DNA of 50,025 nt from a virus (lineage: Duplodnaviria; Caudoviricetes). The position numbers were made by a program, and so were the translations under genes. This document shows positions 1-43,446 of this stretch, piece by piece. Location: the IMG/VR virus record IMGVR_UViG_3300031716_000014, positions 1 through 50,025 of that record; one strand, written 5' to 3'. The notes below the pieces were generated by a model, which saw only the letters and a list, made by a program, of their open reading frames with translations, had not been told where the DNA came from and ran no database searches. How positions within the stretch are numbered: the stretch's first letter is position 1; the number at the start of each line of letters is the position of its first letter.

Positions 1-145
1 TGATGTCCCGCACCCGGAAGGGCTCGCTTCCGAAGGTCCGGTACACAGCGCTGACGAAGTCCCCCCATTCGCGATCATCATCGCTCTCGACCTTCTGAAC
101 GTCCTTGAAGCCGAACTGTCCTGAGACTCCAGCCCAGTTCAAGAG
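1..145. repeat. Terminal direct repeat / circular overlap, copy 1
   Basis: 1-145 matches 49881-50025 except one base (127 C vs 50007 A); falls inside a coding sequence, so probably assembly overlap of a circular 49,880-bp sequence. Confidence 0.95.
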
Positions 146-2395
146 CCCCTCTATCGCGGCATCCCACACCGCGTAGTCGTCCGAGCGCTTCAGCTCAGCA
201 CTCGGCGAGCCCGCGAGCACCCACCCCCGGATGATCGTCAGGATCGCCCGGATGATCTCCCCACGGTTCGCCTGAGGCCACGTCCGCAGATCGAGCGCGA
301 AGCCGGTCCGCTCATGCGGACGGGGCATCTTGGGATCGATCGTGATCCAGTAGCACCGGCGAGCGAGGTCGCCCCCGATCTCGGCGTTGTTCGCCGTGAT
401 CGTCCACAGCCGGTCATTGGGTCCCGAAGCCTCTCGGGACTGACCGAGAAGACGATCACTGAAGCTCGACGACGTCAAGAGACCCTCGAACTTGCTCGAC
501 CGGATCTTGCCCCGGACGTTGTCGAAGGTCACGACGGGTGCCGTCGTGCCGACCAGGATCGACAGAACCGACTTGCCGAACTCGGCATCATCGGACGGCC
601 ATCCGGTACGGATCACCCCACCGTGAACGGTGCGCAAGATCGACGCGAGATACGACTTCCCCGAGCCGGGGGAAGGTGCGTCGATCACGAACGCCGGATA
701 CGGAGGGGGCAGCATCGCGCGCATGAACGGCGTGAACAGAGCGCCGAACCAGTTCGCGCGGTGATGCTCTTCGACGAACGGGAACTCAGCGACGATCTCT
801 TTCAGGAAGCCGACCGCGCTCCCGATGTCCGTCCGCATGATCGGGCTCGGGAGTTCGGGCACGACAAGGCCACCGGTCGGCAGATACAGCAACCGGGTAG
901 CCGAGTCGTATCCGGGCTCAGAGATGATCGACCCATCCGGCCGCATGATCGGTGTGTGGGTCACACCGGCCAGAGTCCGGAGGTTCGGGACGTCGTCTCG
1001 CGTCCGAGCCGCGTTGTGAACGTGGTTGGCCACTTCGAGCGGAAGCATCTTCGGTTCCCAGCTCACGCGCTGAGACTCGATCTCTTCGCCGTCGTCATCG
1101 GTCGTGGTCACCGTGCGACGGCGACCGGCACCCGGCGACATGGCGATCTCGATCTTCGTCTTCAGGTCGAGCGGAAGCATGATCCGAACCTGAGCCGGGC
1201 CGTCGTCGCTGCCGTCCGGCGTCGGGATGTACCCGCGATCACCGATCCGGGGGCAGTACACGAGTTCGCCGTCACGGTGAAACAGGCCGGATAGTTCGTC
1301 GGCACCGATCAGAGACCGAAGAAGATCACCGGCCGTCTTCTTGTTCCGGACGTTGATCCGGCGTCGGCCGTCTCGACCGCGAGCGAGGTTCCCCCCGTCG
1401 TCGTCTTCCGGCTCGCCGTCGTCGAGGTCGTCAGGGTCGGCCGTGTCGTCTTCTGCCGGGGGCTCTTCGGGAAGGTCGTCTTCGCATCCCCTGAAGCCGT
1501 CCGGAGTGAGTTCCGCCATGACCGTCTGACCAGCTCCGATGATCCCGTCTCGCCACTCCTTCGACACGTCGCGGTCGCCCCCGATCGCCTCGAAGAAGAG
1601 CCGCTTCAGTTCCGCGAGCGCGGTCCGGCCGCCGGTGTGACCGGCTTCGCCGTACCTGATGATCGCGAGTTGAGCCTGAAGCGCCGAGTCGTGACGGGCT
1701 TCGCCGTCCGTGACGTGACGACGGAAGTCGTTGATCACGGCCGCCATGTGCGAGCACGGCTCACCCTTCGAGCACCACACCGCGAGCGCTCGATCAAGGT
1801 CGGTCTTCTCGACGGCCGCCTTCCCGTTGTTCGACTCGGCACCGGCGCGAAGCCGGTCGAGCCACCGTTCCGGAAGATCCGGGATGTTGTCGATATGCGG
1901 GATCATGCCGAGAGCGTCGCCGGTCTCCGAGTCGATCCACTGGTACAGACGGCCGGTCTTGTCGTGCGTCGAAGGCCAGACCAGCGCGTACCGGTGATGC
2001 GCCTGAACGATCTCGATCCCCGGAAGCTTCGTGATGAACTCGACGCCTTCGGGCACGCGGAAGACCCGGATGCCGGACACACCGTCATCACGTGATGTGG
2101 AGATCACCGTTCGCGGAAGATCGCCGCACTCGCCGATCAAGGCCGCGAAGGTCGCCGCCCCCGGCTTGCCGTCGTACGCGTCAACGTCGATCCCGATCAA
2201 CCCGCCACAAAGCCGGGTCGCGATGTTCGCGTTCGGCTGGTCGGCCGCCTCGGTCTCGATCTCTTCGAGGCTCGCGTTCCTGCCGTTGCGACCGGTCCGG
2301 CCGGACGGTGGCGGGAACTTCTCGCCGTCCGGCAACGGGAAGATCGGCCACCCCATGCGCCGGTACGTAGCCGCGTAGTCGCCGTAACCGCTCAT
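1..2395 (-). CDS. Bifunctional DNA primase/polymerase (Prim-Pol) fused to P-loop helicase-like domain; continues across the junction to 49594 (~893 aa)
   Basis: Not in the ORF track because it runs off the edge. Hand translation gives MSGYGDYAATYRRMGWPIFPLPDGEKFPPPSG...NIATRL...GIDVDAYDGK...HHRYALVWPSTH (Prim-Pol), Walker A APSPGSGKS and VVTFDNV. In frame with ORF 49594..50022. Confidence 0.85.
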   Translation of the reverse strand, partial: MSGYGDYAATYRRMGWPIFPLPDGEKFPPPSGRTGRNGRNASLEEIETEAADQPNANIATRLCGGLIGIDVDAYDGKPGAATFAALIGECGDLPRTVISTSRDDGVSGIRVFRVPEGVEFITKLPGIEIVQAHHRYALVWPSTHDKTGRLYQWIDSETGDALGMIPHIDNIPDLPERWLDRLRAGAESNNGKAAVEKTDLDRALAVWCSKGEPCSHMAAVINDFRRHVTDGEARHDSALQAQLAIIRYGEAGHTGGRTALAELKRLFFEAIGGDRDVSKEWRDGIIGAGQTVMAELTPDGFRGCEDDLPEEPPAEDDTADPDDLDDGEPEDDDGGNLARGRDGRRRINVRNKKTAGDLLRSLIGADELSGLFHRDGELVYCPRIGDRGYIPTPDGSDDGPAQVRIMLPLDLKTKIEIAMSPGAGRRRTVTTTDDDGEEIESQRVSWEPKMLPLEVANHVHNAARTRDDVPNLRTLAGVTHTPIMRPDGSIISEPGYDSATRLLYLPTGGLVVPELPSPIMRTDIGSAVGFLKEIVAEFPFVEEHHRANWFGALFTPFMRAMLPPPYPAFVIDAPSPGSGKSYLASILRTVHGGVIRTGWPSDDAEFGKSVLSILVGTTAPVVTFDNVRGKIRSSKFEGLLTSSSFSDRLLGQSREASGPNDRLWTITANNAEIGGDLARRCYWITIDPKMPRPHERTGFALDLRTWPQANRGEIIRAILTIIRGWVLAGSPSAELKRSDDYAVWDAAIEGLLNWAGVSGQFGFKDVQKVESDDDREWGDFVSAVYRTFGSEPFRVRDI

Positions 2396-9273: not shown

Positions 9274-9402
9274 CTGAGTACAAGAGCAGAACGGAACGGA
9301 CCGAAGGCCACACGGCACGCGGGGACCGACCGGGGGGAAGTCCCTCCCTATGTGAGTGAAAAGGGACCCGCGCTAGCGGCAAACTCAAGAGGAGAAAAGA
9401 TC

Positions 9403-10638
9403 ATGACGAACACCAACGACGTCAACGCTCAGTTCGACGGCGAGAAGATCGCTCAGCTTGCCGCACAGGCCGCCAAGATCGAGCGCGCGGCCGAACGGCT
9501 CGCGATGTTCCGCCAGAAGGAAGCGAACGGCGACGTCAAGATCACCGAGCAGGGGAACGGCACCTTCGCCGTGACCATGCTCACCGGATGGGACCGGGGG
9601 GAGACGTTCACCGTTCGCACGAACGGGACGGTGCTCATGAACCACGGTCTCGACCTGAAGGAGAACGGCGACGCCGCTCTGTACCTCATGAGCGACGGTC
9701 CGGCGTGGCATGGTCTCGGGACCGTGGTCCCTGAGGGTCTGGCGACCGGCGCGGAAGTCCTTCGCGCTGCCGGGCTCGACTGGACCGTTGAGCAGACGGC
9801 CGCGACCTTCACCGGTCCGGACGGCAAGACTCGCGAGGTTCCCGACACCTTCGTCAACTACCGTTCCGACACCTTCGAGCCTCTCGGCTCGGTCGGCAAG
9901 ATCTACTACCCGTTCCAGAACCTCACGGCGTACTCGATCTTGGATGAGCTTCTCGGTTACGGGATGATCGCCAAGAGCGCCGGTTCGTTCCGGTCCGGCA
10001 AGAAGGTCTTCGTCTCGGCTGAGGTCCCCACCGATCTCGTGATCGACCCGACCGGGGTCGCCGACCCCGTCTCGCAGTACGTGATCATCACGAACACGCA
10101 CGACGGGAACGGGTCCTTGATCGCGAACATCAGTGAGTGGTACCCGCGCTGTGCGAACACTCACCGGCTCGCGCTGAAGAACGCGACCTCGACGTACAAG
10201 ATCCGCCACACCAAGGGGGGTCTGAACAAGATCGAGGAAGCCCGGAAGGTGCTCGGTCTGGCTCACGAGTATCACGCCGAGTTCGTCGCCGAAGAGACCG
10301 CGCTTGCTCAGGTGGCCTTCGACGCGAACGACCTCGACGACCTGATCTTGCAGGTCTGGGGAGAGCCCGACGCCGACTCGAAGCGTGGCGTCACGCTCGC
10401 CGCGAACCGGCGGGACAAGGTTCATGAGGTCTGGGCCGTCGAGCTGGGTCGGCTCGGGGCAACGGCCTTCGCCGCAGAGAACGCGGTGACCGGCTACCTC
10501 GACCACATGAGCGAGCTTCGCCCGCGCGGTGACCTGAAGGGGAACCGGCTCGCGGCGCTCGGTCAGACCCTTCTCGAAGACACCACGACCGAGAAGAAGT
10601 CGGCCGCTCACGCGGTTCTCATGAACCGGGTCCGCTGA
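9403..10638 (+). CDS. DUF932 family (phage/plasmid-like TIGR03299) protein
   Basis: PAWHGLG, AGLDWTV, LGSVGKIYYPFQN, NTHDGNGS, RCANT, IRHT motifs. Confidence 0.85.
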   Translation: MTNTNDVNAQFDGEKIAQLAAQAAKIERAAERLAMFRQKEANGDVKITEQGNGTFAVTMLTGWDRGETFTVRTNGTVLMNHGLDLKENGDAALYLMSDGPAWHGLGTVVPEGLATGAEVLRAAGLDWTVEQTAATFTGPDGKTREVPDTFVNYRSDTFEPLGSVGKIYYPFQNLTAYSILDELLGYGMIAKSAGSFRSGKKVFVSAEVPTDLVIDPTGVADPVSQYVIITNTHDGNGSLIANISEWYPRCANTHRLALKNATSTYKIRHTKGGLNKIEEARKVLGLAHEYHAEFVAEETALAQVAFDANDLDDLILQVWGEPDADSKRGVTLAANRRDKVHEVWAVELGRLGATAFAAENAVTGYLDHMSELRPRGDLKGNRLAALGQTLLEDTTTEKKSAAHAVLMNRVR

Positions 10639-11853: not shown

Positions 11854-11872
11854 ATGTCCAGCCGGATTCATG

Positions 11873-11901
11873 TTGACAAGGGGTCACGGCAAGCGCATTA
11901 T
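11873..11901 (+). promoter_or_regulatory. Promoter with TTGAC-N5-GTCAC operator
   Basis: TTGACA-17bp-CATTAT. Confidence 0.75.
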
Positions 11902-11944
11902 GAATTCAGGCAAGTTCAAGTCCACAAGACACGGAGTGATCGAA

Positions 11945-12466
11945 ATGGCCAGCTTCACCACCGCGACCGAGCGTCAGATCTCCTTCCTCGACTCCCTGAT
12001 CACCGAGCGCGGGCTGACGCTGGACAAGGCCGTCATGCTCACCTTCGACACCGACGCGACCGAGACCTTCGAGATCGGCCGCCGCGAGTGCTCCCAGATG
12101 ATCGACGCCGTCAAGGCCGTCCGTCGTCCCGAGCGCGAGCGCACCGTTCCGGCCGCCGGGCTCGAAGCCGGGATGTACAAGATCGGTCAGGACATCTTCC
12201 GCGTCAAGATCTCGGGTGCCGGTCGGCCGTACGCGAACGCGCTCATGACCGAGAACATCCTGAACGGCAACTACGCCGACGCTGCCGTCTGGTTCGAGTA
12301 CGCGCCGGGTGCGATCTACCGGATCAAGCCTGAGCACCGGATGACCGTCGAAGAGTGCGCCGCGTTCGGTGTCCTGTACGGCACGTGCTGTGTCTGCGCT
12401 CGCACCCTGACCGACCCGAAGAGCGTCGCGAAGGGGATCGGGCCGGTCTGCGAGAAGCGCGTGTGA
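11945..12466 (+). CDS. DUF6011-domain protein
   Basis: C-terminal CCVCARTLTDPKSVAKGIGPVC signature; N-terminal ATERQISFL. Confidence 0.8.
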   Translation: MASFTTATERQISFLDSLITERGLTLDKAVMLTFDTDATETFEIGRRECSQMIDAVKAVRRPERERTVPAAGLEAGMYKIGQDIFRVKISGAGRPYANALMTENILNGNYADAAVWFEYAPGAIYRIKPEHRMTVEECAAFGVLYGTCCVCARTLTDPKSVAKGIGPVCEKRV

Positions 12467-12482: not shown

Positions 12483-12516
12483 GAAGCCCCCGCCGGATCA
12501 CCGGTCGGGGGCTTCT
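12483..12516 (+). terminator. Intrinsic terminator
   Basis: gaagcccccgccgg..ccggtcgggggcttc. Confidence 0.7.
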
Positions 12517-12535
12517 CTCGTTCGGAGGTACGGAC

Positions 12536-12880
12536 ATGGCCCAACTCGACGGCGCGGTACCGCTGGTACCGGAACCGGCCGTACCGGGTACCGGTGCGAT
12601 CGACCTCGACGCGACGGTACGCGAGTACGTCGGTCACGCGGTACTGAAGTACCGGCTCGGGGAAACGTACTGGTACTCGGTCGCCGGTACGGTGATCAAC
12701 GCTCCCACGGGACCGAGCCCGGCGTTCGTGGTGACCATGTACGCGCGTTCCCCGGTACTCGGCTCGGTACTGGTCGAGGGTGCCGTTCAGACCGGCTTCC
12801 CGACCGCGACCGAGTTCGACGCGATCGTGTCCAGCCTGATCGAGTCGCTTCGCAAGCAAGCCCGCGCGGCTCTGAGATGA
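12536..12880 (+). CDS. Hypothetical protein encoded by GTAC-dense DNA
   Basis: RBS ggagg; about 15 GTAC in 12528-12772 by hand count. Confidence 0.6.
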   Translation: MAQLDGAVPLVPEPAVPGTGAIDLDATVREYVGHAVLKYRLGETYWYSVAGTVINAPTGPSPAFVVTMYARSPVLGSVLVEGAVQTGFPTATEFDAIVSSLIESLRKQARAALR

Positions 12881-12898
12881 ACTGAGCCGGACATACGA

Positions 12899-12933
12899 AG
12901 AGCCCCCGCCGGTGTGTACCGGACGGGGGCTCT
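12899..12933. terminator. Bidirectional terminator between convergent genes
   Basis: agagcccccgccgg..ccggacgggggctct. Confidence 0.7.
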
Positions 12934-12951
12934 GTCGTCTCAGCGTGGCTC

Positions 12952-13221
12952 TCAGGCCGTCAGGCCGTACGGCGAGCCAGGATCGTTCCGGGGGTCTTCC
13001 TCGACGTCGAGCCGGTCGGCGCACTTGGCGCACATGATCCCCTTCTCGTAGATCTCGCATCCCGCGCGGTAACCCCACTGCCACGCTGGGAGCGCCGCGA
13101 CGATCACGAGAAACCAGAAGCCGGACACGGCACCGATCACGAGCATGCCGAGTGCCAGCAACGCCCAGAAGATCGGGCTCTCGTTCGTGGCCCTGAGCGC
13201 GCCCTGAAGTTCCTTGTACAT
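12952..13221 (-). CDS. Small two-TM membrane protein
   Basis: RBS gaaggga, MYKELQG start; own promoter at 13282. Confidence 0.6.
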   Translation of the reverse strand: MYKELQGALRATNESPIFWALLALGMLVIGAVSGFWFLVIVAALPAWQWGYRAGCEIYEKGIMCAKCADRLDVEEDPRNDPGSPYGLTA

Positions 13222-13253
13222 GATCCGTTTCCCTTCGTTGACTGCCTGAGTCC

Positions 13254-13282
13254 ATGGTGATTCGGGCGTGACCACTTGTCAA
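13254..13282 (-). promoter_or_regulatory. Promoter with TTGAC-N5-GTCAC operator
   Basis: Minus strand TTGACA agtggtcacgcccgaat CACCAT. Confidence 0.65.
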
Positions 13283-13372
13283 CTTAGCCCAGTACTAGAC
13301 TTCGCGATCTTTCGCCCGCGCGTATGTGATCAGGGGCGACGTCTTAGCCTTAGCCCTTAGCCTTCGTTTCGG

Positions 13373-14125
13373 TCAGCCCCACCACTCGGAAAAAAGGGTC
13401 ACAAAATGGGCCACCGGATGCCAGATCATGACCCCGATCGAGAAGGCGATTCCGGCGCACATCAGGGGGACGATCAAGACCTTCTCGATCTTCCCGCCTG
13501 CCTTGATCTTGGCGAGCCGGTACGTCCGTTTCGAGAACGGCCAGAAGATCCGAAGTCCCATCCGAGTGATCATGTCGCCGATCATGTGGACCACGCATCC
13601 GGCCATGATCGCGACGGGGATCAACTGGAGATTGATCGTCGAGAAGCACACGACGGAGATCACGAACGGGAAGGGTGCAAGATCATCCAACCATGATCGC
13701 CGGAACCACGACCCGACCCGTCCGGGTACCGCGCGGAACAACCGGAGGAACGCCGCGAGTACCAAGATCAGTACCGCACAAAGGATCACCCGAGCGAGTA
13801 CCTGTACCGCAGTCAGCGCCACGCCTTCGAGCGGTACCGGGTAGCCGTCCCGTACCGCGACGGCACCGGCGAGCACGGTACCGAGTGCCAGTACCCCCGG
13901 TACCGAGTGCGTGATCTGCCGGTGTCCCACGAGCTTCGAGAACCCTCGCGTCACCGGTCCGTACGTTCGGGACACGGTACTTTTCGCGTGGTCCACGTCC
14001 GGTAGCAGGGACGATCCCGGTACCACCATGCCGAGTACCACAAGGGACGCGACGTCGAGGTTCAGGTACGCACCGGCGAGCGTAACGGCGAGTACTCCGC
14101 TGATTGCATGTGACCGACCCATCAT
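13373..14125 (-). CDS. YdjM-family (LexA-binding, inner-membrane) metal-dependent hydrolase
   Basis: MMGRSH, LLPDVDH, GHRQITHS, HMIGDMIT..G..FWP motifs; RBS aggagg. Confidence 0.88.
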   Translation of the reverse strand: MMGRSHAISGVLAVTLAGAYLNLDVASLVVLGMVVPGSSLLPDVDHAKSTVSRTYGPVTRGFSKLVGHRQITHSVPGVLALGTVLAGAVAVRDGYPVPLEGVALTAVQVLARVILCAVLILVLAAFLRLFRAVPGRVGSWFRRSWLDDLAPFPFVISVVCFSTINLQLIPVAIMAGCVVHMIGDMITRMGLRIFWPFSKRTYRLAKIKAGGKIEKVLIVPLMCAGIAFSIGVMIWHPVAHFVTLFSEWWG

Positions 14126-14148
14126 CGGTACCACCTCCTGAACTGAGC

Positions 14149-14177
14149 TTGACATAGAGTCACGAGTAACGCACACT
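14149..14177 (+). promoter_or_regulatory. Promoter/operator of the spd-tra-like operon (leaderless)
   Basis: TTGACA tagagtcacgagtaacg CACACT, 6 nt before ATG 14184. Confidence 0.65.
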
Positions 14178-14183
14178 CGATCT

Positions 14184-14501
14184 ATGGCAAAGGAAATCGC
14201 GCGCAGAAGCCGGGACGTACCGGCCACTCGTACCGGCGACGTTGACCCGGACGGGTACGCCGGTATGCCTATCGTCATCGCTGAAGATCCGGAATGGCTG
14301 ACGTTCATGGCACCGGAGACCGCACCGTTCGGTACCTGGGTACAGGGCTGGTACCGGTACGCGATCATTCCGGTACGTGGTCTCGGCTACGTCATGCGCC
14401 GTACCGGTGACGTGATCTTGCGCGTCACCATGTACTGGTACGCGACTCTCGGGATCATCCTCAGCGTGATCACGCTGATCATCATCTGGGTAACACGCTA
14501 A
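14184..14501 (+). CDS. Small membrane protein (Spd-like position)
   Basis: C-terminal TM helix; first gene of the operon containing the TraB-like gene. Confidence 0.6.
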   Translation: MAKEIARRSRDVPATRTGDVDPDGYAGMPIVIAEDPEWLTFMAPETAPFGTWVQGWYRYAIIPVRGLGYVMRRTGDVILRVTMYWYATLGIILSVITLIIIWVTR

Positions 14502-14521
14502 GTCCCTGGAAGGACACGATC

Positions 14522-15688
14522 ATGAAACTGTTCACCCGTACCGCGTCGGTCCCAGAGCCGACCGAGACCGTCAAGCCGAAGACGGCCGCCCAACTGGCGA
14601 AGGAAGCCGAGATCGCTCGCGACCAGGCGATCAAGGACGCTCAGGCGAAGGCCGAACTCGACCGGATCAACCGAGCCGCTTCGTTCGAGCGCGAGACCGA
14701 AGAGCGTGAGCGTGCCCGCGTCCGGCAGGCTGAAGAGCTGAAGGACAAGGCGACCAAGCGCAAGATCGACACGACCGAGTTCCGCGCGTTCGCGAACAAG
14801 GCCGTCCCGTACGCGCCCCTGTTCCTGGTGAACGTCGCCGCGATCACCGGTCAGATTGGTTGGGCTCTCGATCATCTGGAGATCGGCGACGCCGGGACCG
14901 TGCTCCGCTGGTTCGCGTCGATCATGTTCGGTGTCACTGCCGAGTCGATCGCCCTGTTCCTTCAGTACTACGCGAACCGGGCTCTGTTGAACCGGGACAG
15001 TGCGGCTTCGCTCTACCTCGCGGCCTTCCTGGTCGCCGGGCTGGTCGCGGCCGTCAACTTCTCGCACTGGTCGAACCCGGCTGACGGCGAGTTCTTCGGC
15101 AAGGTCAACGCGACGGCCGTGATCTTCGCGCTGTGCTCGTTCGCGTCCCCGTGGCTCTGGAGAATCCACAACCGGGCTGAGTACCGCGAAGCGCTTCGGT
15201 CGGCCGGTGAGATCGACTCGCGCGCCGTCAAGCTCAGCGTCAGCCGGAAGATCCTTTACCCGATCCGTTCGTTCCAGGTGATCCGGCTCGCCGCGTGGCA
15301 GGGTGAGACGAACCCGACGAAGGCCGTCGAGATGTACGAGACGCGCCGGATCGCGAAGGCCACCGTCAAGGCGAGCGAGAAGGCTCTTCGGGACGCTGAG
15401 AAGGCTCAGGGCAAGACCACGAAGGAAGTCGAGGCACCGGCACCGGCCGAGACCCCGAAGCCCGCCACCGTGGCGCACAGCAACGGGAACGGCACGCTCA
15501 ACGGCCGCCGCGACATGTCGAACCACACGAAGTGGAACGACGGTCTCGCGACCTACGCCGCTTCGGTGGACTCGGGTTCGCCCCTGAACACCCGTGAGCT
15601 TGCCGCCGCACTCGGACAGAAGAACAAGGTTCTCGCGTCCGCGATCATCCGTCACTACAAGACCGCTCAGGGGGTCAACGGATCATGA
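14522..15688 (+). CDS. DUF2637/SpdA-SpdB2-like protein: coiled coil + 4 TM + C-terminal HTH
   Basis: Charged N-terminal coiled coil, four hydrophobic helices (AAVNFSHW), Pro/Ala linker, LNTRELAAALGQKNKVLASAII HTH-like end. Confidence 0.65.
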   Translation: MKLFTRTASVPEPTETVKPKTAAQLAKEAEIARDQAIKDAQAKAELDRINRAASFERETEERERARVRQAEELKDKATKRKIDTTEFRAFANKAVPYAPLFLVNVAAITGQIGWALDHLEIGDAGTVLRWFASIMFGVTAESIALFLQYYANRALLNRDSAASLYLAAFLVAGLVAAVNFSHWSNPADGEFFGKVNATAVIFALCSFASPWLWRIHNRAEYREALRSAGEIDSRAVKLSVSRKILYPIRSFQVIRLAAWQGETNPTKAVEMYETRRIAKATVKASEKALRDAEKAQGKTTKEVEAPAPAETPKPATVAHSNGNGTLNGRRDMSNHTKWNDGLATYAASVDSGSPLNTRELAAALGQKNKVLASAIIRHYKTAQGVNGS

Positions 15689-17580
15689 CAGCATCGGTCC
15701 GGCGGTTGTACCTGAACCCGCCGAAGTACCGATCATCTAAGAAGGGTGCCGGGTCCTCAGACGGGCTCGGCACCTTCCTTAATGATCACAGAGAAGAGAT
15801 CGCGCCGTACGTGCTCGCCTGGTTCTACTGGCTCGCGACGGCGCTTGTCGGCCGCGACCCCCTTCGGGTCGCCTGGTTCGTCAGCGTGTCGGCGCTGTGC
15901 TCGGTAATGATCTACTTCTTCGGCTACAAGTTCCGCGCGCTCCGTCAGTTCACGGCGAAGGGCAAGAACGGCCGGTCGAGGAAGCAGAAGATCAGGCTCG
16001 CGTACGTGCTCGCCGCGCCGTTCGTGCTCGCCGCATGGGCGACATGGGCGACATGGCCGAACGCCGCGAGCGACGGTCTTCCGCACCGGCCGACCCTTTG
16101 GGATTCGGTCGTGTTGATCCTGGTAACGCTGGTCGCTGCCGGACCATGGCTCTTCGAGCTGAGATCGAAGCGGAAGGTCGTACTCACGCTCGACGGTCTG
16201 AGCCGCGAAGAGCACGACACGGCTCGCCGGGACGCACGGACGTTGATCAACGGTTGGGTCGGCTGGACCGGCCGATCCGGCTTGACCGGCGCGCGACTGA
16301 AGGGGCTCACCTTCTCGCGCTGGTCACGTTGTATCGAGCTGGAAATGCGACACGGCTCGACGACGCTCAACTTCACCGCGCTTCGGATGAACAAGATCGA
16401 GACGGCTTCGCTCTGGACGATCGCCCCCGGCATGGCTCGGGTCGATCGCTCGGAGACCGACGCGCGCCGGTTGACGATCCGGTACATGCTCGCCGATCCG
16501 CACGCCGAGACCATGCCCCCGCCGGACTTCGACGAGATGGACGACAAGATGATCTCGCTCGGGGTCTTCGAGAACGCCATGACCGTCTGGTTCGAGTGGG
16601 TCAACACGCTGGTTGCCGGACTCACCCGAGCCGGGAAGTCGGCTCTCGTGAACACCTTGATCCGCGCGTTCGCGAAGATCCCTCACGTCGCGATCGTCGG
16701 TATCGACCTGAAGCCGGGTGCTCCCGAACTCGGACCGTGGCGCGACGTCTTCGCGGCGCTCGCCGACAGTCCCGAGAAGACTCACGCGCTACTCGATCAG
16801 ATCTTGATCGGGCTTCAGCGTCGCGGCGATCTCATGCTTCAGCGTGGTTGGCGAAACTGGCGAGTGACGGTCAAGGAACCGTTCCTCGTTCTGATCGTTG
16901 ACGAGATCCAGCGACTCGACCGGAAGGCTCGGGACAAGGTCGCGGACATCGCGGCGATCATCGGCGCGTACGGCGGGATCGTGGTGATCGCGACTCAGTA
17001 TCCGGTGAAGGAGAACCTTCCTTCCAAGATCAAGCAAAACCTGAGCCAGCGAATCGGGTTCCGTACGGCGGACGCCGTCGCCGACCGAGTGATCTTCGGG
17101 GACTCGGCGACGCGTACCGGCTGGAAGCCTTCGGAGCTTTGCCCTGAAGGTCGTCCCGGTTCGTTCTTGATCAGGAACGGGACGCACGTCCGGCCGGTGC
17201 TCGCTCGCGGCTGGTTCAACGACGAAGCCGAAGTGATCAGGGAAGCCGACGTTCTGAGTCGTCACCGGACCGAGATCGACCGCGCCACCTGGAACGGCGA
17301 TCTTGAGTCGGCGATCATGGATGCCGAGTTGGTCGAGCACGATTCGCGACCAGCGATCGAGTCCGTGAAGACGACTCGTGATCAAGTTCTCGAAGCGATC
17401 GAGATCGGGCACGGGACCCCGAAGGCCGTCAGTGCCTATACCGAGATCCCGTACTCGACCGTGAAATTGATCATCAGTCAGCTTGCCGAAGCCGGGCAGA
17501 TCGAGCATGACGGACCGCGCTCGCCATGGCGGCCGACCGCGTTCGACCCGGACGACGGCGAGCCGGACCCGATAGACTGA
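15685..17580 (+). CDS. FtsK/SpoIIIE-family DNA translocase, TraB-like (actinomycete conjugation)
   Basis: N-terminal TMs, Walker A GLTRAGKS, IDLKPG, Walker B LVLIVDE, ATQYP, RIGFR, C-terminal winged-HTH (TPKAVSAYTEIPYSTVKLIISQLAEAGQI). Confidence 0.85.
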   Translation: MTASVRRLYLNPPKYRSSKKGAGSSDGLGTFLNDHREEIAPYVLAWFYWLATALVGRDPLRVAWFVSVSALCSVMIYFFGYKFRALRQFTAKGKNGRSRKQKIRLAYVLAAPFVLAAWATWATWPNAASDGLPHRPTLWDSVVLILVTLVAAGPWLFELRSKRKVVLTLDGLSREEHDTARRDARTLINGWVGWTGRSGLTGARLKGLTFSRWSRCIELEMRHGSTTLNFTALRMNKIETASLWTIAPGMARVDRSETDARRLTIRYMLADPHAETMPPPDFDEMDDKMISLGVFENAMTVWFEWVNTLVAGLTRAGKSALVNTLIRAFAKIPHVAIVGIDLKPGAPELGPWRDVFAALADSPEKTHALLDQILIGLQRRGDLMLQRGWRNWRVTVKEPFLVLIVDEIQRLDRKARDKVADIAAIIGAYGGIVVIATQYPVKENLPSKIKQNLSQRIGFRTADAVADRVIFGDSATRTGWKPSELCPEGRPGSFLIRNGTHVRPVLARGWFNDEAEVIREADVLSRHRTEIDRATWNGDLESAIMDAELVEHDSRPAIESVKTTRDQVLEAIEIGHGTPKAVSAYTEIPYSTVKLIISQLAEAGQIEHDGPRSPWRPTAFDPDDGEPDPID

Positions 17581-17620
17581 GCAGTGATCGGAACCGGACT
17601 CGCGGCCGGTATCCAAGATC

Positions 17621-17659
17621 GGAGAGCCCCCGGACGACCACGGTCGCCGGGGGTTTTTC
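17621..17659 (+). terminator. Intrinsic terminator
   Basis: gagagcccccggacgacc..ggtcgccgggggtttttc. Confidence 0.7.
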
Positions 17660-17685
17660 GTGTCTTCGTGACTCTCCGTCGATAT

Positions 17686-17845
17686 GCCCCTGTACGGCCC
17701 TGAGAGCCACGCTGAGCGCCTCGACCCCCTTCCCGGTACTCGCTATCCGGGTACCCCGAGTTCGTCGTTTCCCCTGGTCATCAGGGCTTCGCTTCGGGCC
17801 GTCGAGGCTCATTAAACGCCGGGCTGAATACATGCGCCCCTGAGG
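17686..17845 (+). repeat. Dispersed intergenic repeat, copy C
   Basis: cccctgtacggccctgagagccacgctgagcgcctcgacccc...ctatccgg...ttcgtcgtttcccctggtcatcaggg...aaacgccgggctgaatacatg. Confidence 0.88.
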
Positions 17846-17864: not shown

Positions 17865-17893
17865 TTGACCGGGTGTCACTCGGATGAGAGAAT
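17865..17893 (+). promoter_or_regulatory. Promoter with TTGAC-N5-GTCAC operator
   Basis: TTGACC-17bp-GAGAAT. Confidence 0.7.
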
Positions 17894-17931
17894 CAGGTCA
17901 TGCCCCAAGAACACGGAGGGATACCAGGATC

Positions 17932-18837
17932 ATGAAACAGGCGTACATCGAAAAGCGGTTCAACCGGTCGAGCGTCGAGATCATCGCGATTGCCGAAACG
18001 ATCTGTCAGGAGTACGCACGTCGGGGACTGAGCCTGACCCTTCGTCAGCTCTACTACCAGTTCGTAGCCCGTGGCTATATCGACAACCGGCAGACCGAGT
18101 ACAAGCGGATCGGGTCGATCGTCGCTGACGCGCGGCTCGCCGGGTTGATCGACTGGGACCACATCGAAGACCGGACCCGGTTCCTTCGTGGGGTGACCAC
18201 GTGGACAAGCCCGAACCAGATCTTGCGCGCCGTCGCCGGTCAGTTCCAGACGAACCGTTGGCGGAACCAAGATCAGCATGTCGAAGTGTGGATCGAGAAG
18301 GATGCTCTCGTGGGAGTGATCCAAAACCCGTGCTCACGCTGGCACGTCGATTACTTCGCATGCCGGGGGTACGCGAGCGCGAGCGAGGTCCGGTCGGCCG
18401 GTGTCCGCTTCGTCCATCACGAGAGCATGGGCCGACACACGACCGTGATCCATCTCGGCGACCACGACCCGTCAGGGCTCGACATGACCCGCGACCTCGA
18501 AGACCGGCTTCGGCTCTTCGGCTCGCGTGTGGACGTCCACCGGATCGCGCTCAACATGAACCAGGTCGAGCAGTACACACCCCCGCCGAACCCGGCGAAG
18601 ATGACCGACTCGCGAGCGAACGATTACGTCGATCTCTACGGCTTCGAGAGCTGGGAACTCGACGCGCTCGACCCCACGGTCATTCAGGATCTTGTCGAGG
18701 GGGAGATCTTGGCTCGCCTCGACATGAACGAGTGGAACAGGGTCACGGCCGAAGACCTCGCGGTTCGGGAGACGCTGAAGCGGCTCGCGGACAACTGGGA
18801 CGACGTCCGGGACCACGTCGAAGAAACCTACGAGTAG
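17932..18837 (+). CDS. TopoVI-A/Spo11-like wHTH + TOPRIM protein
   Basis: TLRQLYYQ, EVWIEKDAL, GYAS, HLGDHDPSG, RIALN, ELDAL motifs. Confidence 0.8.
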   Translation: MKQAYIEKRFNRSSVEIIAIAETICQEYARRGLSLTLRQLYYQFVARGYIDNRQTEYKRIGSIVADARLAGLIDWDHIEDRTRFLRGVTTWTSPNQILRAVAGQFQTNRWRNQDQHVEVWIEKDALVGVIQNPCSRWHVDYFACRGYASASEVRSAGVRFVHHESMGRHTTVIHLGDHDPSGLDMTRDLEDRLRLFGSRVDVHRIALNMNQVEQYTPPPNPAKMTDSRANDYVDLYGFESWELDALDPTVIQDLVEGEILARLDMNEWNRVTAEDLAVRETLKRLADNWDDVRDHVEETYE

Positions 18838-22123: not shown

Positions 22124-22566
22124 AGATCACCTTCTTCGTCTCGGAACCGGCTGACAAGATCGACTCGCCGAAGCCATGTGCCCCCGGCGAAGACCAGCAC
22201 CGGCCACGCCGGAAGGACGCCCGACCAACCCCCAATCATGATCAAGGCCACACCGTAGACCAGCGCCGCGAGCGAGGACAGGTACAAGCCAAAGATCAAA
22301 ATTGGCATTCGGGTCACGACCATGTGACCGTTGTTTTCCTTGATCGACGATAGTCCGATCAGCCACAACAGGCACCCGAAGAACAGGCAGATCGACCAGA
22401 CCAGCCGACCCCAACCGGGAAGGAACTCGGACAAGGCTCGGGACTGGACCACGCCGACGACGGCGAGCGTCGCGCCGGGGATGCCGAGAACACAGAACGT
22501 CGCGTCGAGCGGTGCCGTCCGAATCCATATCGGAAGCCGTCTAACGATCCGGTCCTGAACACCCAT
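22120..22566 (-). CDS. Four-TM membrane protein
   Basis: Hydrophobic helices; operon packing. Confidence 0.65.
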   Translation of the reverse strand: MGVQDRIVRRLPIWIRTAPLDATFCVLGIPGATLAVVGVVQSRALSEFLPGWGRLVWSICLFFGCLLWLIGLSSIKENNGHMVVTRMPILIFGLYLSSLAALVYGVALIMIGGWSGVLPAWPVLVFAGGTWLRRVDLVSRFRDEEGDL

Positions 22567-23240
22567 CAAAGATCCCATTCGTACGTGAGCCGCTTTAGCT
22601 GTGCGTACGCTTCAGCGCGTTGATCAGGAGTCATGTTACGAGAGTGTGAGTCCGGATGCGTCCGGTAGCGGAAGCCGGGTCGCCGAGTGCCGACGATCTT
22701 CGCCGAGAGATGCGCGAAGCCGACCCAGAACGCCGAGTCGATCCAGTCGTTCGCCTCGATCCACGGACGGCGCTCCCAGAACGACCGGCGGAACGCGGCA
22801 CACGAGAAGCACACCGACATGCCCATGAGAGCGCGCTCTGTCGAAGCCCACCGGTGCAAGATCGATTGCCCATCCTTGACCGCGCCGATCGAGACCACGT
22901 CGGCGCGGTGTGCTTCGTTGGCCACGTCGGCGAGCGCGTACGGAAACAGCATGTCGTCCGCGTCGAGATGCATGATCCATTCGGTCTCGGTCGCCTCGAC
23001 GGCAGCGTTGCGAGCCCGACCCATCCCCGCGTACTCGATCTTCTTCCAGCGCCACGGGATCGGGCAGCGCGCGAGCCTGAGCCGTGCGGCCGTCGAGTCG
23101 GTTATGCCCGCGTCAATGATCGTGATCTGAGCCGGTCTCAACGTCTGAGTCTCGACGCTCTCGATCCACTCGGGGAGGTATCGGCCGTAGTCGCCCCATG
23201 CCGACGTCACGACCCCGATGTTGAAACCGGCCACGTTCAC
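22566..23240 (-). CDS. Glycosyltransferase family 2
   Basis: YLPEWIESV..Q, IIDAG, GMGRARN, LDADD, YRTH..S. Confidence 0.88.
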   Translation of the reverse strand: MNVAGFNIGVVTSAWGDYGRYLPEWIESVETQTLRPAQITIIDAGITDSTAARLRLARCPIPWRWKKIEYAGMGRARNAAVEATETEWIMHLDADDMLFPYALADVANEAHRADVVSIGAVKDGQSILHRWASTERALMGMSVCFSCAAFRRSFWERRPWIEANDWIDSAFWVGFAHLSAKIVGTRRPGFRYRTHPDSHSRNMTPDQRAEAYAQLKRLTYEWDL

Positions 23241-24259
23241 AACCTTCCGAGCGCGTACATCTTCCGGTCGTACCGCTTGTCGTAGCCCGGCGTGAGAGCC
23301 ACGATGATTCCCCCTAGGGAGTTGACCGCGTCATGCATCGCGAACGTCTCAGCGTGCGCTACAGCGCCGGGAAGACGCTCCCTAGCGTCGGCGAGTTCGA
23401 CGAACGTCAGCCTCGACGACGTGACGGCCGCCGCGAGCATCTCGCGCCACCACGGAACGTGATGTAGCACGCTGAGTAGAAGCGTGACGTCGTACCCCGA
23501 GAGCCGGTCGAGGTCGTCTCGGCTGAAGCGCTGCCGGATGAACTCGACCCTCCCGTTCTCGGTCGTGACCACCTGTTCGGGAAGCCCCCGGTAGTCGTCA
23601 ACGGCCGTACACACCGCGCCGAACTCTTCGGCGAGCCGGACCGAGAAGTACCCTTCGTACGCGCCGACGTCGAGCACCCGGAATCCGGTCTTCGGGAAGA
23701 CCTCGCGCCGGATCGCTTCGTACCGTCCGGCACAGTCGCGCTGTCCGGGACGTACCTCGCGGCCGTCCTTCCATTGCGCCTGGTAACCCATGGGCATAAC
23801 CCCCCACTGATTCATGATCGAGGTTCTGTCGGTCGATCCCCACCACGCCGGGATGTGGCGAGCGTGGATCGTCGGCACCGGCACCCGAGAGACGTCGGGA
23901 CCCCAGAGATCGTATGAGTACTCGGCTGGTTGCTCGATCGCCGTTTCCCAGTCGATCAAGAGCGGTACGCCGTGCTTGCCCTTGACCACGTTCCGAAGAT
24001 GGACGTCCCGATGATGGATGCCTTCTGCATGTAGCGCGCTGAGTAGCTCGCGAAGAGCGTCGGCCGGTCTCCAGTGCGGGAAGGCCGTACCGGCGTGCCG
24101 AGTCTCGATCGTCAGCTTCAGCCCGTCGAAGTCGAGAAGCCGGGGGGTCGCCCACGGAACCCGCCGGTACCATTCCGCTTCGGCCGCCGCGAGTGACGGG
24201 ATCTTGTACGTCTTGGTCGTGTGGTCCGGCAACACCGCGACCCGAGCCCGATCGCCCAT
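23237..24259 (-). CDS. Kinase-like (Kdo/RIO/APH fold) domain fused to class I SAM methyltransferase
   Basis: HHRDVHLRN and LIDWE in the N-half; VLDVGAYEGYFS and LLSVLHH in the C-half; one reading frame. Confidence 0.8.
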   Translation of the reverse strand: MGDRARVAVLPDHTTKTYKIPSLAAAEAEWYRRVPWATPRLLDFDGLKLTIETRHAGTAFPHWRPADALRELLSALHAEGIHHRDVHLRNVVKGKHGVPLLIDWETAIEQPAEYSYDLWGPDVSRVPVPTIHARHIPAWWGSTDRTSIMNQWGVMPMGYQAQWKDGREVRPGQRDCAGRYEAIRREVFPKTGFRVLDVGAYEGYFSVRLAEEFGAVCTAVDDYRGLPEQVVTTENGRVEFIRQRFSRDDLDRLSGYDVTLLLSVLHHVPWWREMLAAAVTSSRLTFVELADARERLPGAVAHAETFAMHDAVNSLGGIIVALTPGYDKRYDRKMYALGRL

Positions 24260-24264
24260 GTCCG

Positions 24265-24885
24265 CTAGACGTTCCGTCGAATCCACGTGGCCGCGAGACA
24301 GGACATGTCACCACCGTTGGTGATGTTCAGGTTTCCGCCTGAGTCCTGGAACACGAAGCATTCGATGTAGTCGGCCGCCGCCATGTTGAACGTGTCGGAA
24401 TGTGACACACGGGTTGCCAGACCAGCACCCACAGACGGGACCGTGATCCGGGTTCGCTCGGAACCGTTCTGGTACAGGTGGACCTGACGGTTACCGGTCG
24501 CGTTGGCCGCGAACTCGACGGCCGCCGTCACGACGTAGATCCCCCCGATCGGTGCTGTGAGTCGCGTCGGAGATCCACCGGCCCACATCGTTCCGGCGTT
24601 GTAATCGGCTGAGCTGAAGCTGACGGCCGTCGCCGAACCGGTCCCGATGCTTTGGGTCGTGGTCCGTTGCGCTCTCGCCGCCGGGGTGTTGCCCGCGATG
24701 ACTTGCCACGCCGCACCGTCATAGATCCGGACGTAATCCGTGTCGGTCTCGTAGATCGTCATGCCCTCGTTCGGCGACCCTGGTCGAGTGCCAGACGTAC
24801 AGGCGATCACCGCCTGTTCCATCAGGTAATCGTTCACGTCGGCCGCCGTCAGGACTGAACCGGCCGTGAAGGTCTTGAATCCCAT
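24265..24885 (-). CDS. Minor tail / receptor-binding protein
   Basis: FTAGSVLTAADVN, GMTIYETDT..YDGAAW, beta-rich C-terminus. Confidence 0.7.
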   Translation of the reverse strand: MGFKTFTAGSVLTAADVNDYLMEQAVIACTSGTRPGSPNEGMTIYETDTDYVRIYDGAAWQVIAGNTPAARAQRTTTQSIGTGSATAVSFSSADYNAGTMWAGGSPTRLTAPIGGIYVVTAAVEFAANATGNRQVHLYQNGSERTRITVPSVGAGLATRVSHSDTFNMAAADYIECFVFQDSGGNLNITNGGDMSCLAATWIRRNV

Positions 24886-32125: not shown

Positions 32126-32761
32126 TCAACTCCTGACCTTCACGCGCTGACGCTCGTACGGGTACAGCAGCTTGCCGACCTTCGGGATATCCCGGACCCG
32201 GACCGCGCCGAACTCGGACCAACCGGCCACGCCGAAGGGGGCTTCCCGCATCTTGAACGTCTCGGCCGCAAGCATGAGCTGAGCCTGTTTCACGTCCGCC
32301 GGGACAGCCGCCCATCCGAAATGCGCCGTGACCCGAAGCGACGCGACGTACCCGAGCACAGGGAACCTGAGCGCGTTGATCGCCCTGATCTTGAAGTACG
32401 GCCAACCGGTGTTACCGTCCCGGATGCCGTTCAGGGGTTCGAGCTGGTAGTCACTCGCCGTCCATGCTTCGGTGTACGTGCCGTCGCCGTTCGGGTCGGT
32501 GTCGATCTCAAGATCGGTGATCGTGTGGACGTCGTCGATCTCGGCAAGCCACGAGTACCGGCACGCGTACACGCGGGTCTGTGTACCGGTACTCGTGATC
32601 ACATTGTCGCGGTTGAACTGACGGGAACAGTGGTTGTTGATCTCTCGCGTCGAGCTTTCGAGCACGTCGTCAAGATCAGCGTCGTAGTCCGTGATCGAGC
32701 TGTCGATCTTGAGATATGACTTCAGCTCAGCTCTCGTCACGTACGGGTCGAGGAAGGCCAC
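32126..32761 (-). CDS. Head-to-tail adaptor (gp6/gp15-like)
   Basis: YVTRAELKSYL, INNHCSRQF, GWAAVPADVKQA, LLYPY. Confidence 0.8.
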   Translation of the reverse strand: MAFLDPYVTRAELKSYLKIDSSITDYDADLDDVLESSTREINNHCSRQFNRDNVITSTGTQTRVYACRYSWLAEIDDVHTITDLEIDTDPNGDGTYTEAWTASDYQLEPLNGIRDGNTGWPYFKIRAINALRFPVLGYVASLRVTAHFGWAAVPADVKQAQLMLAAETFKMREAPFGVAGWSEFGAVRVRDIPKVGKLLYPYERQRVKVRS

Positions 32762-33506
32762 CCGGATCAACCCCTTCCCGCGTGAGCCCGTTCGAGGTCA
32801 GGTACAGCTCTTCGTCGAGGTAGACGAGTCCCTTGTGATGGGTCGTGCGAACGGCCGTGTTGACGTGCATCGGTACCCCGAGTTCGGCGAGCCGGATACA
32901 GAACGAAAGATCTTCGCTGTAGAAGCCTTCGCCGTCTTCGGTACGAACCCGCGTGAACCAGTCGGTACCGAACTTCTCGCGTACCGCGTCGAGTACCGAT
33001 CGGTGTACCAGGATCGCGGCCGTACCGGTCGCGTCCACCGGTACCACGGCATCGATCGGGTACCGGGGGTACGGCGTGAAGCCGGTCATCCCGTCCGGGT
33101 TCTTCTGGTACATGGTCGGGTGAACGTGGTACGTGTCCGCGTACATCCCGAGTACCGGACCCCGGCGAGCCGCGAAGCACAGAGCGCCGACGACGGGCCG
33201 ATCTTCCTTGTGAGCCGACGTGACGAGATCATCGACGATCTCGCGCGAGAATCCCATGTCGGTGTCCACAAAGAACAACCACTCGCCGTCAGTGGTGTCT
33301 AGAAAGGCCCTGACGACGTCGTTACGGCTGTCTGGGAGGTTCCCTGAGGTACAGAGACTCCGAAGCTCTCTACCGCCGTTACGGACGATCCTACGGCTCT
33401 TCATGAGGTCGAAGAGAGTGAGGTCCCGATACGAGAGACCGAAGCACGCGGACCATGATCCGTTATCCAGGTAGCCGACGACCACCGACCCCGCCGTGAT
33501 CTTCAC
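32727..33506 (-). CDS. Glycosyltransferase (GT-A fold)
   Basis: SRNDVVRAFL, WLFFVDTDMGF, TGTAAILVHR, SEDLSFC.R. Confidence 0.8.
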   Translation of the reverse strand: MKITAGSVVVGYLDNGSWSACFGLSYRDLTLFDLMKSRRIVRNGGRELRSLCTSGNLPDSRNDVVRAFLDTTDGEWLFFVDTDMGFSREIVDDLVTSAHKEDRPVVGALCFAARRGPVLGMYADTYHVHPTMYQKNPDGMTGFTPYPRYPIDAVVPVDATGTAAILVHRSVLDAVREKFGTDWFTRVRTEDGEGFYSEDLSFCIRLAELGVPMHVNTAVRTTHHKGLVYLDEELYLTSNGLTREGVDPGGLPRPVRDES

Positions 33507-33784
33507 TTGTCGTCGTCTCCCTTCGTGCGCGGTCCGCGACGCGTGGTCCGGGCAGAGCTGACGGAACGTCGCTCGCCGGGTGCTGCCGTCGCCGTCTCGA
33601 CCGGTGCCGAGACCGGCTCGGACGAAGCGGTACTGAAGTCGATCTTCTGAGGTTCCCAGAGGTCCGGGTGAGCCCGGACGATCGGGTGATCTTCGTGTGC
33701 CGTCGTGATCTTTCCCTTGACCACGATCCGGCGTCCTTCGTAAACGATCAGTGCGTTGGTCTTCGCGACCAGGATAAGGCTCAT
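33503..33784 (-). CDS. Small protein downstream of capsid
   Basis: HPIVRAHPDLWEP, VETATAAPGERR. Confidence 0.65.
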   Translation of the reverse strand: MSLILVAKTNALIVYEGRRIVVKGKITTAHEDHPIVRAHPDLWEPQKIDFSTASSEPVSAPVETATAAPGERRSVSSARTTRRGPRTKGDDDK

Positions 33785-33862
33785 GATCTCCCCAGGGATG
33801 GGACGGTACCGGCGTGGTACCGGGGGTACGTCGCTGCGGATTCCGTACCCCCGGTACCGGTA

Positions 33863-42996: not shown

Positions 42997-43041
42997 GCTG
43001 AACCCCTTCCTTCCCGGTATCGGTTGTGTAACGATGCCGGG

Positions 43042-43070
43042 TTGCCTGTTGACTATGGGTCAAGCATACT
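43042..43070 (+). promoter_or_regulatory. Leaderless promoter of the HTH gene with operator TTGAC-TATGG-GTCAA in the spacer
   Basis: TTGCCT-17bp-CATACT-6nt-ATG; palindrome at 43049-43063. Confidence 0.65.
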
Positions 43071-43076
43071 GAGTCC

Positions 43077-43361: not shown

Positions 43362-43394
43362 CGTACGCCGAACCCCGCCATGTCCGGCACACAA

Positions 43395-43436
43395 AGAAGG
43401 ACCCGAGCGCTCCCCCGTTGCGCTCGGGTCCTTCTG
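43395..43436. terminator. Bidirectional terminator
   Basis: agaaggacccgagcgc...gcgctcgggtccttct. Confidence 0.75.
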
Positions 43437-43446
43437 TCTTTCCTGG

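Follow-up and report, generated by a model that had tools for sequence, protein, structure and literature searches.

The DNA analysed here, hereafter called the window, is a stretch of 50,025 bp that comprises an entire virus record of IMG/VR (IMGVR_UViG_3300031716_000014), for which the completeness rating is 100%. Its early region carries an operon of three genes, linked in translation, that encodes a small tail-anchored membrane protein, a protein resembling SpdB2 of Streptomyces plasmids, and a predicted membrane-anchored double-stranded DNA (dsDNA) translocase of the FtsK/TraB type. The locus contains the following features, given by position, strand, and assignment:

14149-17666, plus strand: three-gene operon unit from promoter-like motif to terminator, delimited by open reading frames (ORFs), motif, and hairpin
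14149-14163, plus strand: TTGAC-N5-GTCAC promoter-like motif, 21 nt ahead of the first ATG (14184)
14184-14501, plus strand: gene for a 105-amino-acid (aa) tail-anchored protein, with one C-terminal transmembrane (TM) helix by hydropathy and AlphaFold2
14522-15688, plus strand: gene for a 388-aa SpdB2-like protein, a divergent DUF2637 relative
15685-17580, plus strand: gene for a 631-aa membrane-anchored FtsK/TraB-like predicted dsDNA translocase, assigned by Pfam, PHROG, and AlphaFold2
17615-17666, plus strand: intrinsic terminator at the end of the operon (hairpin plus U-run)

A preliminary description of this DNA had read the promoter-like motif, the three genes, and the terminator as one unit. 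The ORFs, the hairpin, and a four-base overlap (ATGA) between the genes for the 388-aa and 631-aa proteins bear this out. The terminator hairpin has a predicted free energy of -36.6 kcal/mol (z -4.6), and none of 200 shuffled sequences folds equally well. The TTGAC-N5-GTCAC motif is present in the window in nine exact copies (2685, 7680, 9245, 10881, 11873, 13268 on the minus strand, 14149, 17865, and 45736 on the minus strand) and in twenty-four copies when up to one mismatch is allowed, versus 3.9 expected; shuffled controls gave a maximum of nine copies, and none of 100 shuffles reached twenty-four. Eight of the nine exact copies lie within 2.6-18 kb, that is, in the early/replication region, and the ninth at 45.7 kb; most are situated just 5' of early-region ORFs, and the copy at 17865 precedes the gene that follows the operon. 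The claim that the operon uses the phage's own promoter thus stands as far as an enriched early-region motif at 14149 is concerned, and the motif is a putative promoter element of the early/replication region. Its spacing at 14149 would place the start of transcription at or very near the ATG, resulting in a leaderless message.

The arrangement of the operon is not chimeric, because independent public metagenome assemblies carry the same arrangement at ~98-99% identity. A single 7216-nt contig of one independent run (X3) spans 12800-17719 with 70 differences, a single 3134-nt contig of another (X5) spans 14573-17712, and in a third (X4) the operon region is covered by three abutting contigs; the artefactual joining that the preliminary description had allowed for is therefore not what was found. 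As a separate observation, contigs of three independent runs break or branch at 17687-17750, at the terminator hairpin, and ~60 nt within this interval are matched by several contigs of one run, which likely reflects a short repeated element.

The genome in which the operon resides is that of a siphovirus. The full set of virion genes that the preliminary description reported is indeed present: PHROG scans identified terminase, portal, a capsid/protease fusion, head-tail connectors, major tail proteins, a 999-aa tape measure protein, and an endolysin, along with a replication set consisting of a PolA-type polymerase, a primase/polymerase, a helicase, and an exonuclease. The terminase is located as follows:

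37794-39230, minus strand: gene for the large terminase, by PHROG scan

The two ends of the record join into a single primase/polymerase ORF (window positions 1-2395 and 49961-50025), which remains in frame for ~21 further codons; the ends showed no exact terminal repeat in the range of 11-200 nt. Because this ORF continues across the joined ends, the record points to a circularly permuted, complete assembly. Among the scanned ORFs of the window, no integrase or partition family was found, and the sole regulator family seen is a 75-aa Xre-type helix-turn-helix (HTH) protein. Identity of the terminase to its counterparts in isolated actinophages (phages of Arthrobacter, Gordonia, and Mycobacterium) does not exceed 41%, and on this basis the window virus, a soil phage, is classed as an actinobacteriophage without a close cultured relative. 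No isolated phage matched the operon in a search for near-identical DNA.

The preliminary description had given the three products as a small TM protein, a protein with coiled coil, four TM helices, and HTH, and an FtsK-type protein with TM helices and a winged helix, a layout with which hydropathy and AlphaFold2 models agree. In the model of the 631-aa protein (predicted local distance difference test [pLDDT] score 84), four N-terminal TM helices (residues 36-163) are followed by an alpha/beta domain (165-270), a RecA-type motor (290-530), and a winged helix (564-617). The protein scores 38.6 bits against Pfam FtsK_SpoIIIE (PF01580; cut-off 24), and hence belongs to this superfamily, and it matches phrog_1358 (6.9e-31). 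The Walker A (G312, G317, K318, S319) and Walker B (D406, E407) residues are invariant in thirty-four homologues. Foldseek searches with the model returned the FtsK motor first (4.7e-17; TM-score by target 0.58-0.68 over ~400 aligned columns), then the conjugative coupling protein TcpA (1.1e-15) and EccC (7.8e-12). A word-indexed search found eighty-two homologues, many of them on contigs of 45-62 kb, and homologues carry ArsR/IclR-type HTH families. The scores against the curated models of FtsK (18.2 bits versus a cut-off of 1566) and EccCb (23 versus 346.6) fall far below the respective thresholds.

To place the motor, motor domains were collected from four Streptomycetaceae genomes (FtsK, EccC, Tra of 450-500 aa, and a long FtsK-like protein) and from 151 further genomes, eighteen of which contain canonical TraB; divergent forms are present as well. 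Two trees were inferred: a quick tree of seventy-one motor domains, which omitted L008, L013, and the duplicate loci L071-L076, and a more careful one of thirty-seven chosen rows. FtsK, EccC, and the 450-500-aa Tra of the integrative and conjugative elements of actinomycetes (AICEs) are split from the rest with a Shimodaira-Hasegawa-like approximate likelihood ratio test (SH-aLRT) support of 89 in the former and an ultrafast bootstrap (UFBoot)/SH-aLRT support of 86/96 in the latter. Located on the opposite side of this split are TraB in its canonical and divergent forms, proteins of phages and prophages, and the Tra of plasmid pSGL1. The family of the window ATPase pairs with the Tra proteins of pSGL1 and of L024, a 6.4-kb contig resembling pSGL1 (support 91 in the seventy-one-domain tree and 80/86 in the thirty-seven-row tree); the order of the remaining groups is not settled by the branching of either tree. 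The ATPase is thereby placed, as judged from aligned motor sequences, outside the clades of chromosomal FtsK, EccC, and short AICE Tra and on the side of plasmid TraB. Its positive link to TraB is of moderate strength, and its nearest non-phage relatives appear, with moderate support, to be the Tra proteins of Streptomyces plasmids of 6-7 kb. A grouping with FtsK or type VII secretion proteins, which the preliminary description had named as the result that would speak against it, was seen in neither tree.

The named systems on both sides of the split can be compared with the window protein in architecture. TraB proteins of the pSVH1, pSN22, and pJV1 type share with it a single FtsK-family motor, a membrane anchor, and a C-terminal winged helix, lie on the same side of the tree, and are often accompanied by DUF2637 genes; they differ in forming a separate, distant clade, and the window gene is part of a virion-forming phage instead of a plasmid or AICE. 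The 660-aa Tra of pSGL1 (NZ_CP013740.1; 7.2 kb) is 27.6% identical over residues 306-609, which include the winged helix, and has the same domain order (FtsK_SpoIIIE followed by an IclR/MarR-type HTH), but the 293-aa protein encoded downstream of it has no detectable relation to the 388-aa protein. Chromosomal FtsK and EccC share the FtsK/HerA-type motor fold and form separate clades; the window protein also has one motor domain, not three.

These comparisons bear on the possibility that the operon serves host take-over, i.e. that the FtsK-like pump acts on host DNA or on host division and segregation, for instance by disturbing septum formation or sporulation or by removing the host chromosome; the phage literature presupposes such a role where it counts ftsK as a development-related gene. 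The fold of the 631-aa protein is that of the FtsK motor, passages of Streptomyces phage papers place ftsK beside whiB, parB, and ssgA as genes that may manipulate development (PMC10117723, PMC13587820), and the SmeA-SffA system (PMC4255298) offers a host precedent in which a small membrane protein targets an FtsK-like protein to septa, a pairing likewise seen in the operon. We nevertheless consider this explanation unlikely, since the motor lies outside the chromosomal FtsK clade, an IclR/MarR-type winged helix of its own stands in place of an FtsK-type C-terminus, and the constant partner of the pump is a DUF2637 protein, as in transfer modules.

This partner, the 388-aa protein, is modelled by AlphaFold2 (pLDDT 88) with a single long helix (22-118), in which a charged stalk (~22-95) passes into the first TM helix; four TM helices in all (~96-220) precede a helical linker and an HTH-like bundle of helices at the C-terminus (338-387). 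It matches phrog_10376 (1.1e-8) and has 449 relatives among 1.84 billion representatives. Against Pfam DUF2637 (PF10935) it scores 13.8 bits and so falls below the cut-off (22.8), although relatives in the same position pass. Fifteen of fifty-nine members of its family match DUF2637 at E<=0.01, and proteins matched by the hidden Markov model (HMM) of this family, called g388 here, clear the DUF2637 cut-off (e.g. L018 with 38-41 bits and L106 with 62 bits). Because several proteins (L004, L087, L090, L106, and L109) match both profiles, the 388-aa type is best read, at the level of sequence profiles, as a divergent DUF2637 subfamily, with which the 13.8-bit match and the fifteen of fifty-nine members fit. 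Feature searches of the Atlas also ranked DUF2637-bearing clusters first (0.91-0.93), ahead of SpdB_N/HTH_SpdB_C clusters (0.84), a result that serves as a lead only. Nothing was found at E<=0.001 in a Foldseek search of the 388-aa model against the PDB, no match in a tblastn search of the protein against phages and plasmids, and no g388-like or translocase gene in the 109 genome stretches returned by a degenerate 21-nt pattern search for g388-type genes.

In passages of the study of plasmid pSVH1 by Thoma et al. (2015; PMC4447253), TraB is described as a translocase, and SpdB2 as a pore-forming protein with four TM helices as well as an N-terminal coiled coil (residues 1-99) and a C-terminal domain, which binds dsDNA and peptidoglycan and interacts and co-purifies with TraB; the spd genes are translationally coupled. 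The 388-aa protein, compared here with this published description, has the same layout of N-terminal coiled coil, four TM helices, and C-terminal domain, and its gene shares the coupling to a neighbour through the ATGA overlap with the translocase gene. DUF2637 genes also adjoin at least eight short Tra genes in Streptomyces genomes and the TraB or TraB-like genes of G146, G022, G016:C20, L077, and L078. The earlier characterization of the protein as SpdB2-like and DUF2637-related consequently survives in part: the layout and the transitive relation to DUF2637 support it, but Pfam does not assign the Spd proteins of pJV1 and pSN22 to DUF2637, and these show no relation to the 388-aa type.

The operon is not peculiar to the window. 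Related loci were found by alignment-based scans of viral and genome collections, single-protein scans having confirmed nothing. Thirty-six loci (three from IMG/VR and thirty-three from metagenomes, including one duplicate and three distant loci) were examined, and conservation of the pair formed by a DUF2637-type gene and a translocase gene was counted over the twenty family loci in which the upstream DNA spans 800 bp or more. The pair is kept in all twenty. In seventeen of them, the product of the gene directly upstream of the translocase gene matches either the g388-family HMM or an HMM built from the DUF2637 proteins that adjoin Tra/TraB; in the other three (L088, L089, and L108), a multi-TM protein of 347-352 aa is encoded there, and the two of these that were scanned both pass Pfam DUF2637. 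Of nineteen upstream proteins compared with Pfam DUF2637, eleven pass, one is just below the cut-off, and seven have no match, the seven being those most similar to the 388-aa protein of the window.

All fourteen genome loci found with the family alignment belong to Streptomycetaceae. Seven were inspected (L012, L013, L016, L017, L018, L020, and L021; L014, L015, L019, L022, L023, and L025 were outside this inspection), and these seven are prophages, because terminase and portal genes follow 3-6 kb downstream of the translocase gene in each. In all seven, a DUF2637-type gene is directly upstream of the translocase gene, and five of the six proteins scanned pass the cut-off. The singular hybrid of phage and conjugative element envisaged in the preliminary description, which had suggested a survey of related phages for the same operon, is thus not what the collections contain: the pair is common in phages (twenty of twenty loci) and prophages (seven of seven).

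This conservation makes it very improbable that the operon is a selfish or relict cassette, derived from small Streptomyces plasmids or AICEs and of no benefit to the phage. The Tra proteins of 6-7 kb plasmids being the nearest non-phage relatives would suit such an origin, but the pair and its intact motifs are retained down to ~31% identity and over several prophage lineages.

In the prophages, the pair is positioned between the replication genes and the terminase gene in lytic-gene orientation, which argues for use in phage growth over use in lysogeny. The same position is relevant to a role in superinfection exclusion or another membrane defence, in which a complex of the operon products would block or expel the DNA of competing phages or plasmids. 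That the products are early-region membrane proteins is in keeping with such a role, as is the location of mycobacteriophage DUF2637 proteins, which adjoin the integration cassette, where exclusion genes are common. PADLOC returned a single, weak local match, of residues 397-475 of the 631-aa protein to mad8 (39 bits); the other four proteins scanned matched nothing, and no known defence system was matched as a whole. Given also that the prophage pair is located not at the immunity end but in the stretch of lytic-orientation genes that separates replication from packaging, and that the window phage has no integrase among its scanned ORFs, we view exclusion as distinctly unlikely.

FtsK-like matches among isolated actinophages are confined to Streptomyces phages (11 of 11 and 88 of 88 actinophage records), and other matches among isolated phages are to unrelated Bacillus and Staphylococcus phages. 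The Streptomyces phage proteins, which include gp10 of Gilgamesh and the 'FtsK-like DNA translocase' of phages of ~130 kb (Karimac, Peebs, Samisti12, and Yaboi), fall on the same side of the tree and are 25-29% identical to the window protein, with the motor alone aligning. Scans of two proteins neighbouring Gilgamesh gp10 (gp4 and gp9) revealed no DUF2637 protein. Separately, five Streptomyces 'plasmids' of 130-133 kb (NZ_CP122459.1, CP108533.1, NZ_CP070374.1, NZ_CP108441.1, and NZ_CP107821.1) carry FtsK-like genes resembling those of the ~130-kb phages, and may be phage genomes or phage-plasmids filed as plasmids.

The restriction to Streptomyces phages is left unexplained if the pump handles the phage's own DNA within one cell, whether by completing genome entry or by anchoring or partitioning replicating genomes at the membrane. 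A predicted membrane-anchored dsDNA pump with a sequence-reading domain and an early-type promoter would suit such a function; an entry motor of the FtsK type encoded by a phage is not known to us, however, no search aimed at one having been made, which we count against it, and we give it little credence.

The reading that we favour, tentatively and with some doubt, is that the operon encodes a phage-owned, TraB/Spd-like apparatus for dsDNA translocation that acts at cross-walls or septa. The analysis shows the anatomy of the operon, its intact ATPase motifs, the predicted folds, the conservation of the pair, and the placement of the motor outside FtsK and EccC; that the products form a complex, on which DNA and at which site they act, and whether they affect spread is inferred. 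The operon would be part of an early programme that is the phage's own. Six copies of the 631-aa protein would assemble into a membrane-anchored pump of the FtsK type, the C-terminal winged helix of which would select phage DNA, and the 388-aa and 105-aa proteins would form or position a channel at the septum or cross-wall. The most likely job of this machine would be the transport of phage genomes, once replicated and in the form of dsDNA, through the cross-walls of hyphae or through sporulation septa, possibly extending to movement into touching hyphae. Virion-independent spread, which the preliminary description had put forward and which stays purely conjectural, would be the outcome, in that one infection could reach neighbouring compartments without virions.

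Parts of this proposal have antecedents. Spreading of phage DNA by SpdB2 homologues of phages phiC31 and VWB was already suggested in 2015, in the pSVH1 study (PMC4447253), and the annotation of isolated Streptomyces phages already includes FtsK-like and DUF2637 genes as separate entries. Passages of recent papers list phage FtsK-like genes, name no tested function for them, and link them to development or replication (PMC11536984, 10.1101/2024.02.16.580700, PMC10117723, PMC13587820). No description of a paired DUF2637/FtsK-like phage operon was found in the literature searched, the coverage of which did not extend to subscription journals. What is new here is a conserved operon, present across a clade of ~50-kb phages and in Streptomycetaceae prophages, that is situated on the TraB side of the motor tree.

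Several results weigh against the favoured reading, the first group of which concerns the likeness to TraB. The best NCBIfam match of the 631-aa protein is plasmid_TraB (NF041214), but its score of 29.6 bits, obtained over the motor region only, is far from the equivalog cut-off of 800 (its relatives L003-L011 reach 48-64 bits), and by this model the protein is not TraB in the curated sense. Under a functional definition, membrane association and a C-terminal winged helix behind a single motor are both predicted for it, whereas carriage by a conjugative plasmid or AICE does not apply, the replicon being a complete tailed-phage genome. Canonical TraB motors score 11-32 bits against the HMM of the family motor, below FtsK and EccC (~25-39 bits); the pair formed by pSGL1 and L024 is on a long branch; and the deep branches of the trees have only moderate support. 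The TraB likeness asserted in the preliminary description accordingly holds for the layout and the side of the tree, but not for the equivalog model or for proximity to canonical TraB.

A second group concerns the partner protein, the host, and the target site. Profile comparisons (hhalign) of the g388 family with the DUF2637 proteins that adjoin Tra/TraB, and with the 371-aa protein of pJV1 and the 293-aa protein of pSGL1, gave no signal. In the ~130-kb Streptomyces phages, the DUF2637 gene is near 13-15 kb and the 'FtsK-like DNA translocase' gene near 75 kb, such that ~60 kb separates the two. DUF2637 proteins are also encoded in 206 Mycobacterium, four Gordonia, and two Rhodococcus phage records, in which the translocase searches gave no FtsK-like match; the hosts of the Mycobacterium phages are not mycelial, and the presence of DUF2637 in phages of unicellular hosts implies that the family is not specific to hyphal spreading. 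Finally, no array of 8-bp repeats like those of the plasmid transfer locus that acts in cis (clt), tandem or clustered, was found near the operon, and a screen for analogues of clt or of FtsK orienting polar sequences (KOPS), covering repeats and 8-mers that are over-represented or skewed between the strands, yielded nothing convincing.

The surroundings of the operon contain three further features:

13373-14128, minus strand: gene for a YdjM-family inner-membrane protein (Pfam YdjM, 1.6e-25), divergent from the operon
13726-14438, no strand assigned: GTAC-rich island of cGGTACc sites over the 5' half of the YdjM gene, the divergent promoter region, and the gene for the 105-aa protein
17884-18837, plus strand: phrog_6247 gene ('DNA topoisomerase', 1.6e-116; no Pfam family), preceded by a TTGAC-N5-GTCAC motif of its own

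The YdjM match begins at residue 82 of a long ORF with its first ATG at 14368, and the real start of the gene is probably near 14128, behind an AGGAGG-like site. A YdjM homologue is encoded divergently upstream in fourteen of the fifteen related loci for which 2 kb or more of upstream DNA is available, and the gene may belong functionally to the translocase module. The 105-aa protein matched no family in Pfam, PHROG, NCBIfam, or PADLOC; small tail-anchored proteins of 87-134 aa are nonetheless encoded between the YdjM and DUF2637-type genes in nine loci (L005, L085, L088, L108, L091, L095, L097, L100, and L104). The phrog_6247 gene stays downstream of the translocase gene in the close relatives L084-L086.

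GTAC sites are concentrated in 500-bp bins at 12501-13000, 13501-14500, 32501-34000, and 43001-44000, with 8-17 sites versus ~3 elsewhere. The sites read cGGTACc, which is palindromic, and are spread over all codon phases, which places the signal at the level of DNA. Similar clusters near the YdjM gene and the divergent promoter are present in eleven of fifteen related loci (naive Poisson p<0.01), the densest being that of L104 with up to nineteen sites in 300 bp. The island at 13726-14438 may be a cis-acting array, and the islands in general could be an array of operators, a site at which the translocase loads, or the target of a DNA-binding or DNA-modifying protein. A broader version of the favoured reading, which we regard as possible but doubtful, is that many actinophages and Streptomyces prophages, the window phage among them, possess a TraB/Spd-like apparatus that passes their replicated genomes, as naked dsDNA, through the cross-walls of hyphae or through sporulation septa and perhaps onward to adjacent hyphae, by which infection would spread within a mycelium free of virions, and that the GTAC arrays beside the operon could be the loading sites that the winged helix reads.

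Elsewhere in the window, glycosyltransferase-, methyltransferase-, and kinase-like genes are found amid the tail and head genes (22566-24286 and 32727-33506, both minus strand), the products of which may modify the virion or DNA. The early region also encodes DUF932 (9352-10638, plus strand) and DUF6011 (11870-12466, plus strand) proteins, with synteny kept in several related phage contigs.

Phages of compartmented multicellular bacteria face a constraint that phages of single-celled hosts do not, namely that one injected genome is confined to one hyphal compartment. If the favoured reading is true, a phage TraB/Spd-like pump across cross-walls would be a new route of viral spread, the boundary between phages and the conjugative elements of Streptomyces would be blurred, and a function would be provided for the 'FtsK-like DNA translocase' and DUF2637 genes, to which the annotation of many Streptomyces phages assigns none. 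Since cultivable Streptomyces carry the same operon in their prophages, the idea can be tested directly. Should the idea of spread prove wrong, the module would still be a widespread and unexplained membrane machine of actinophages.

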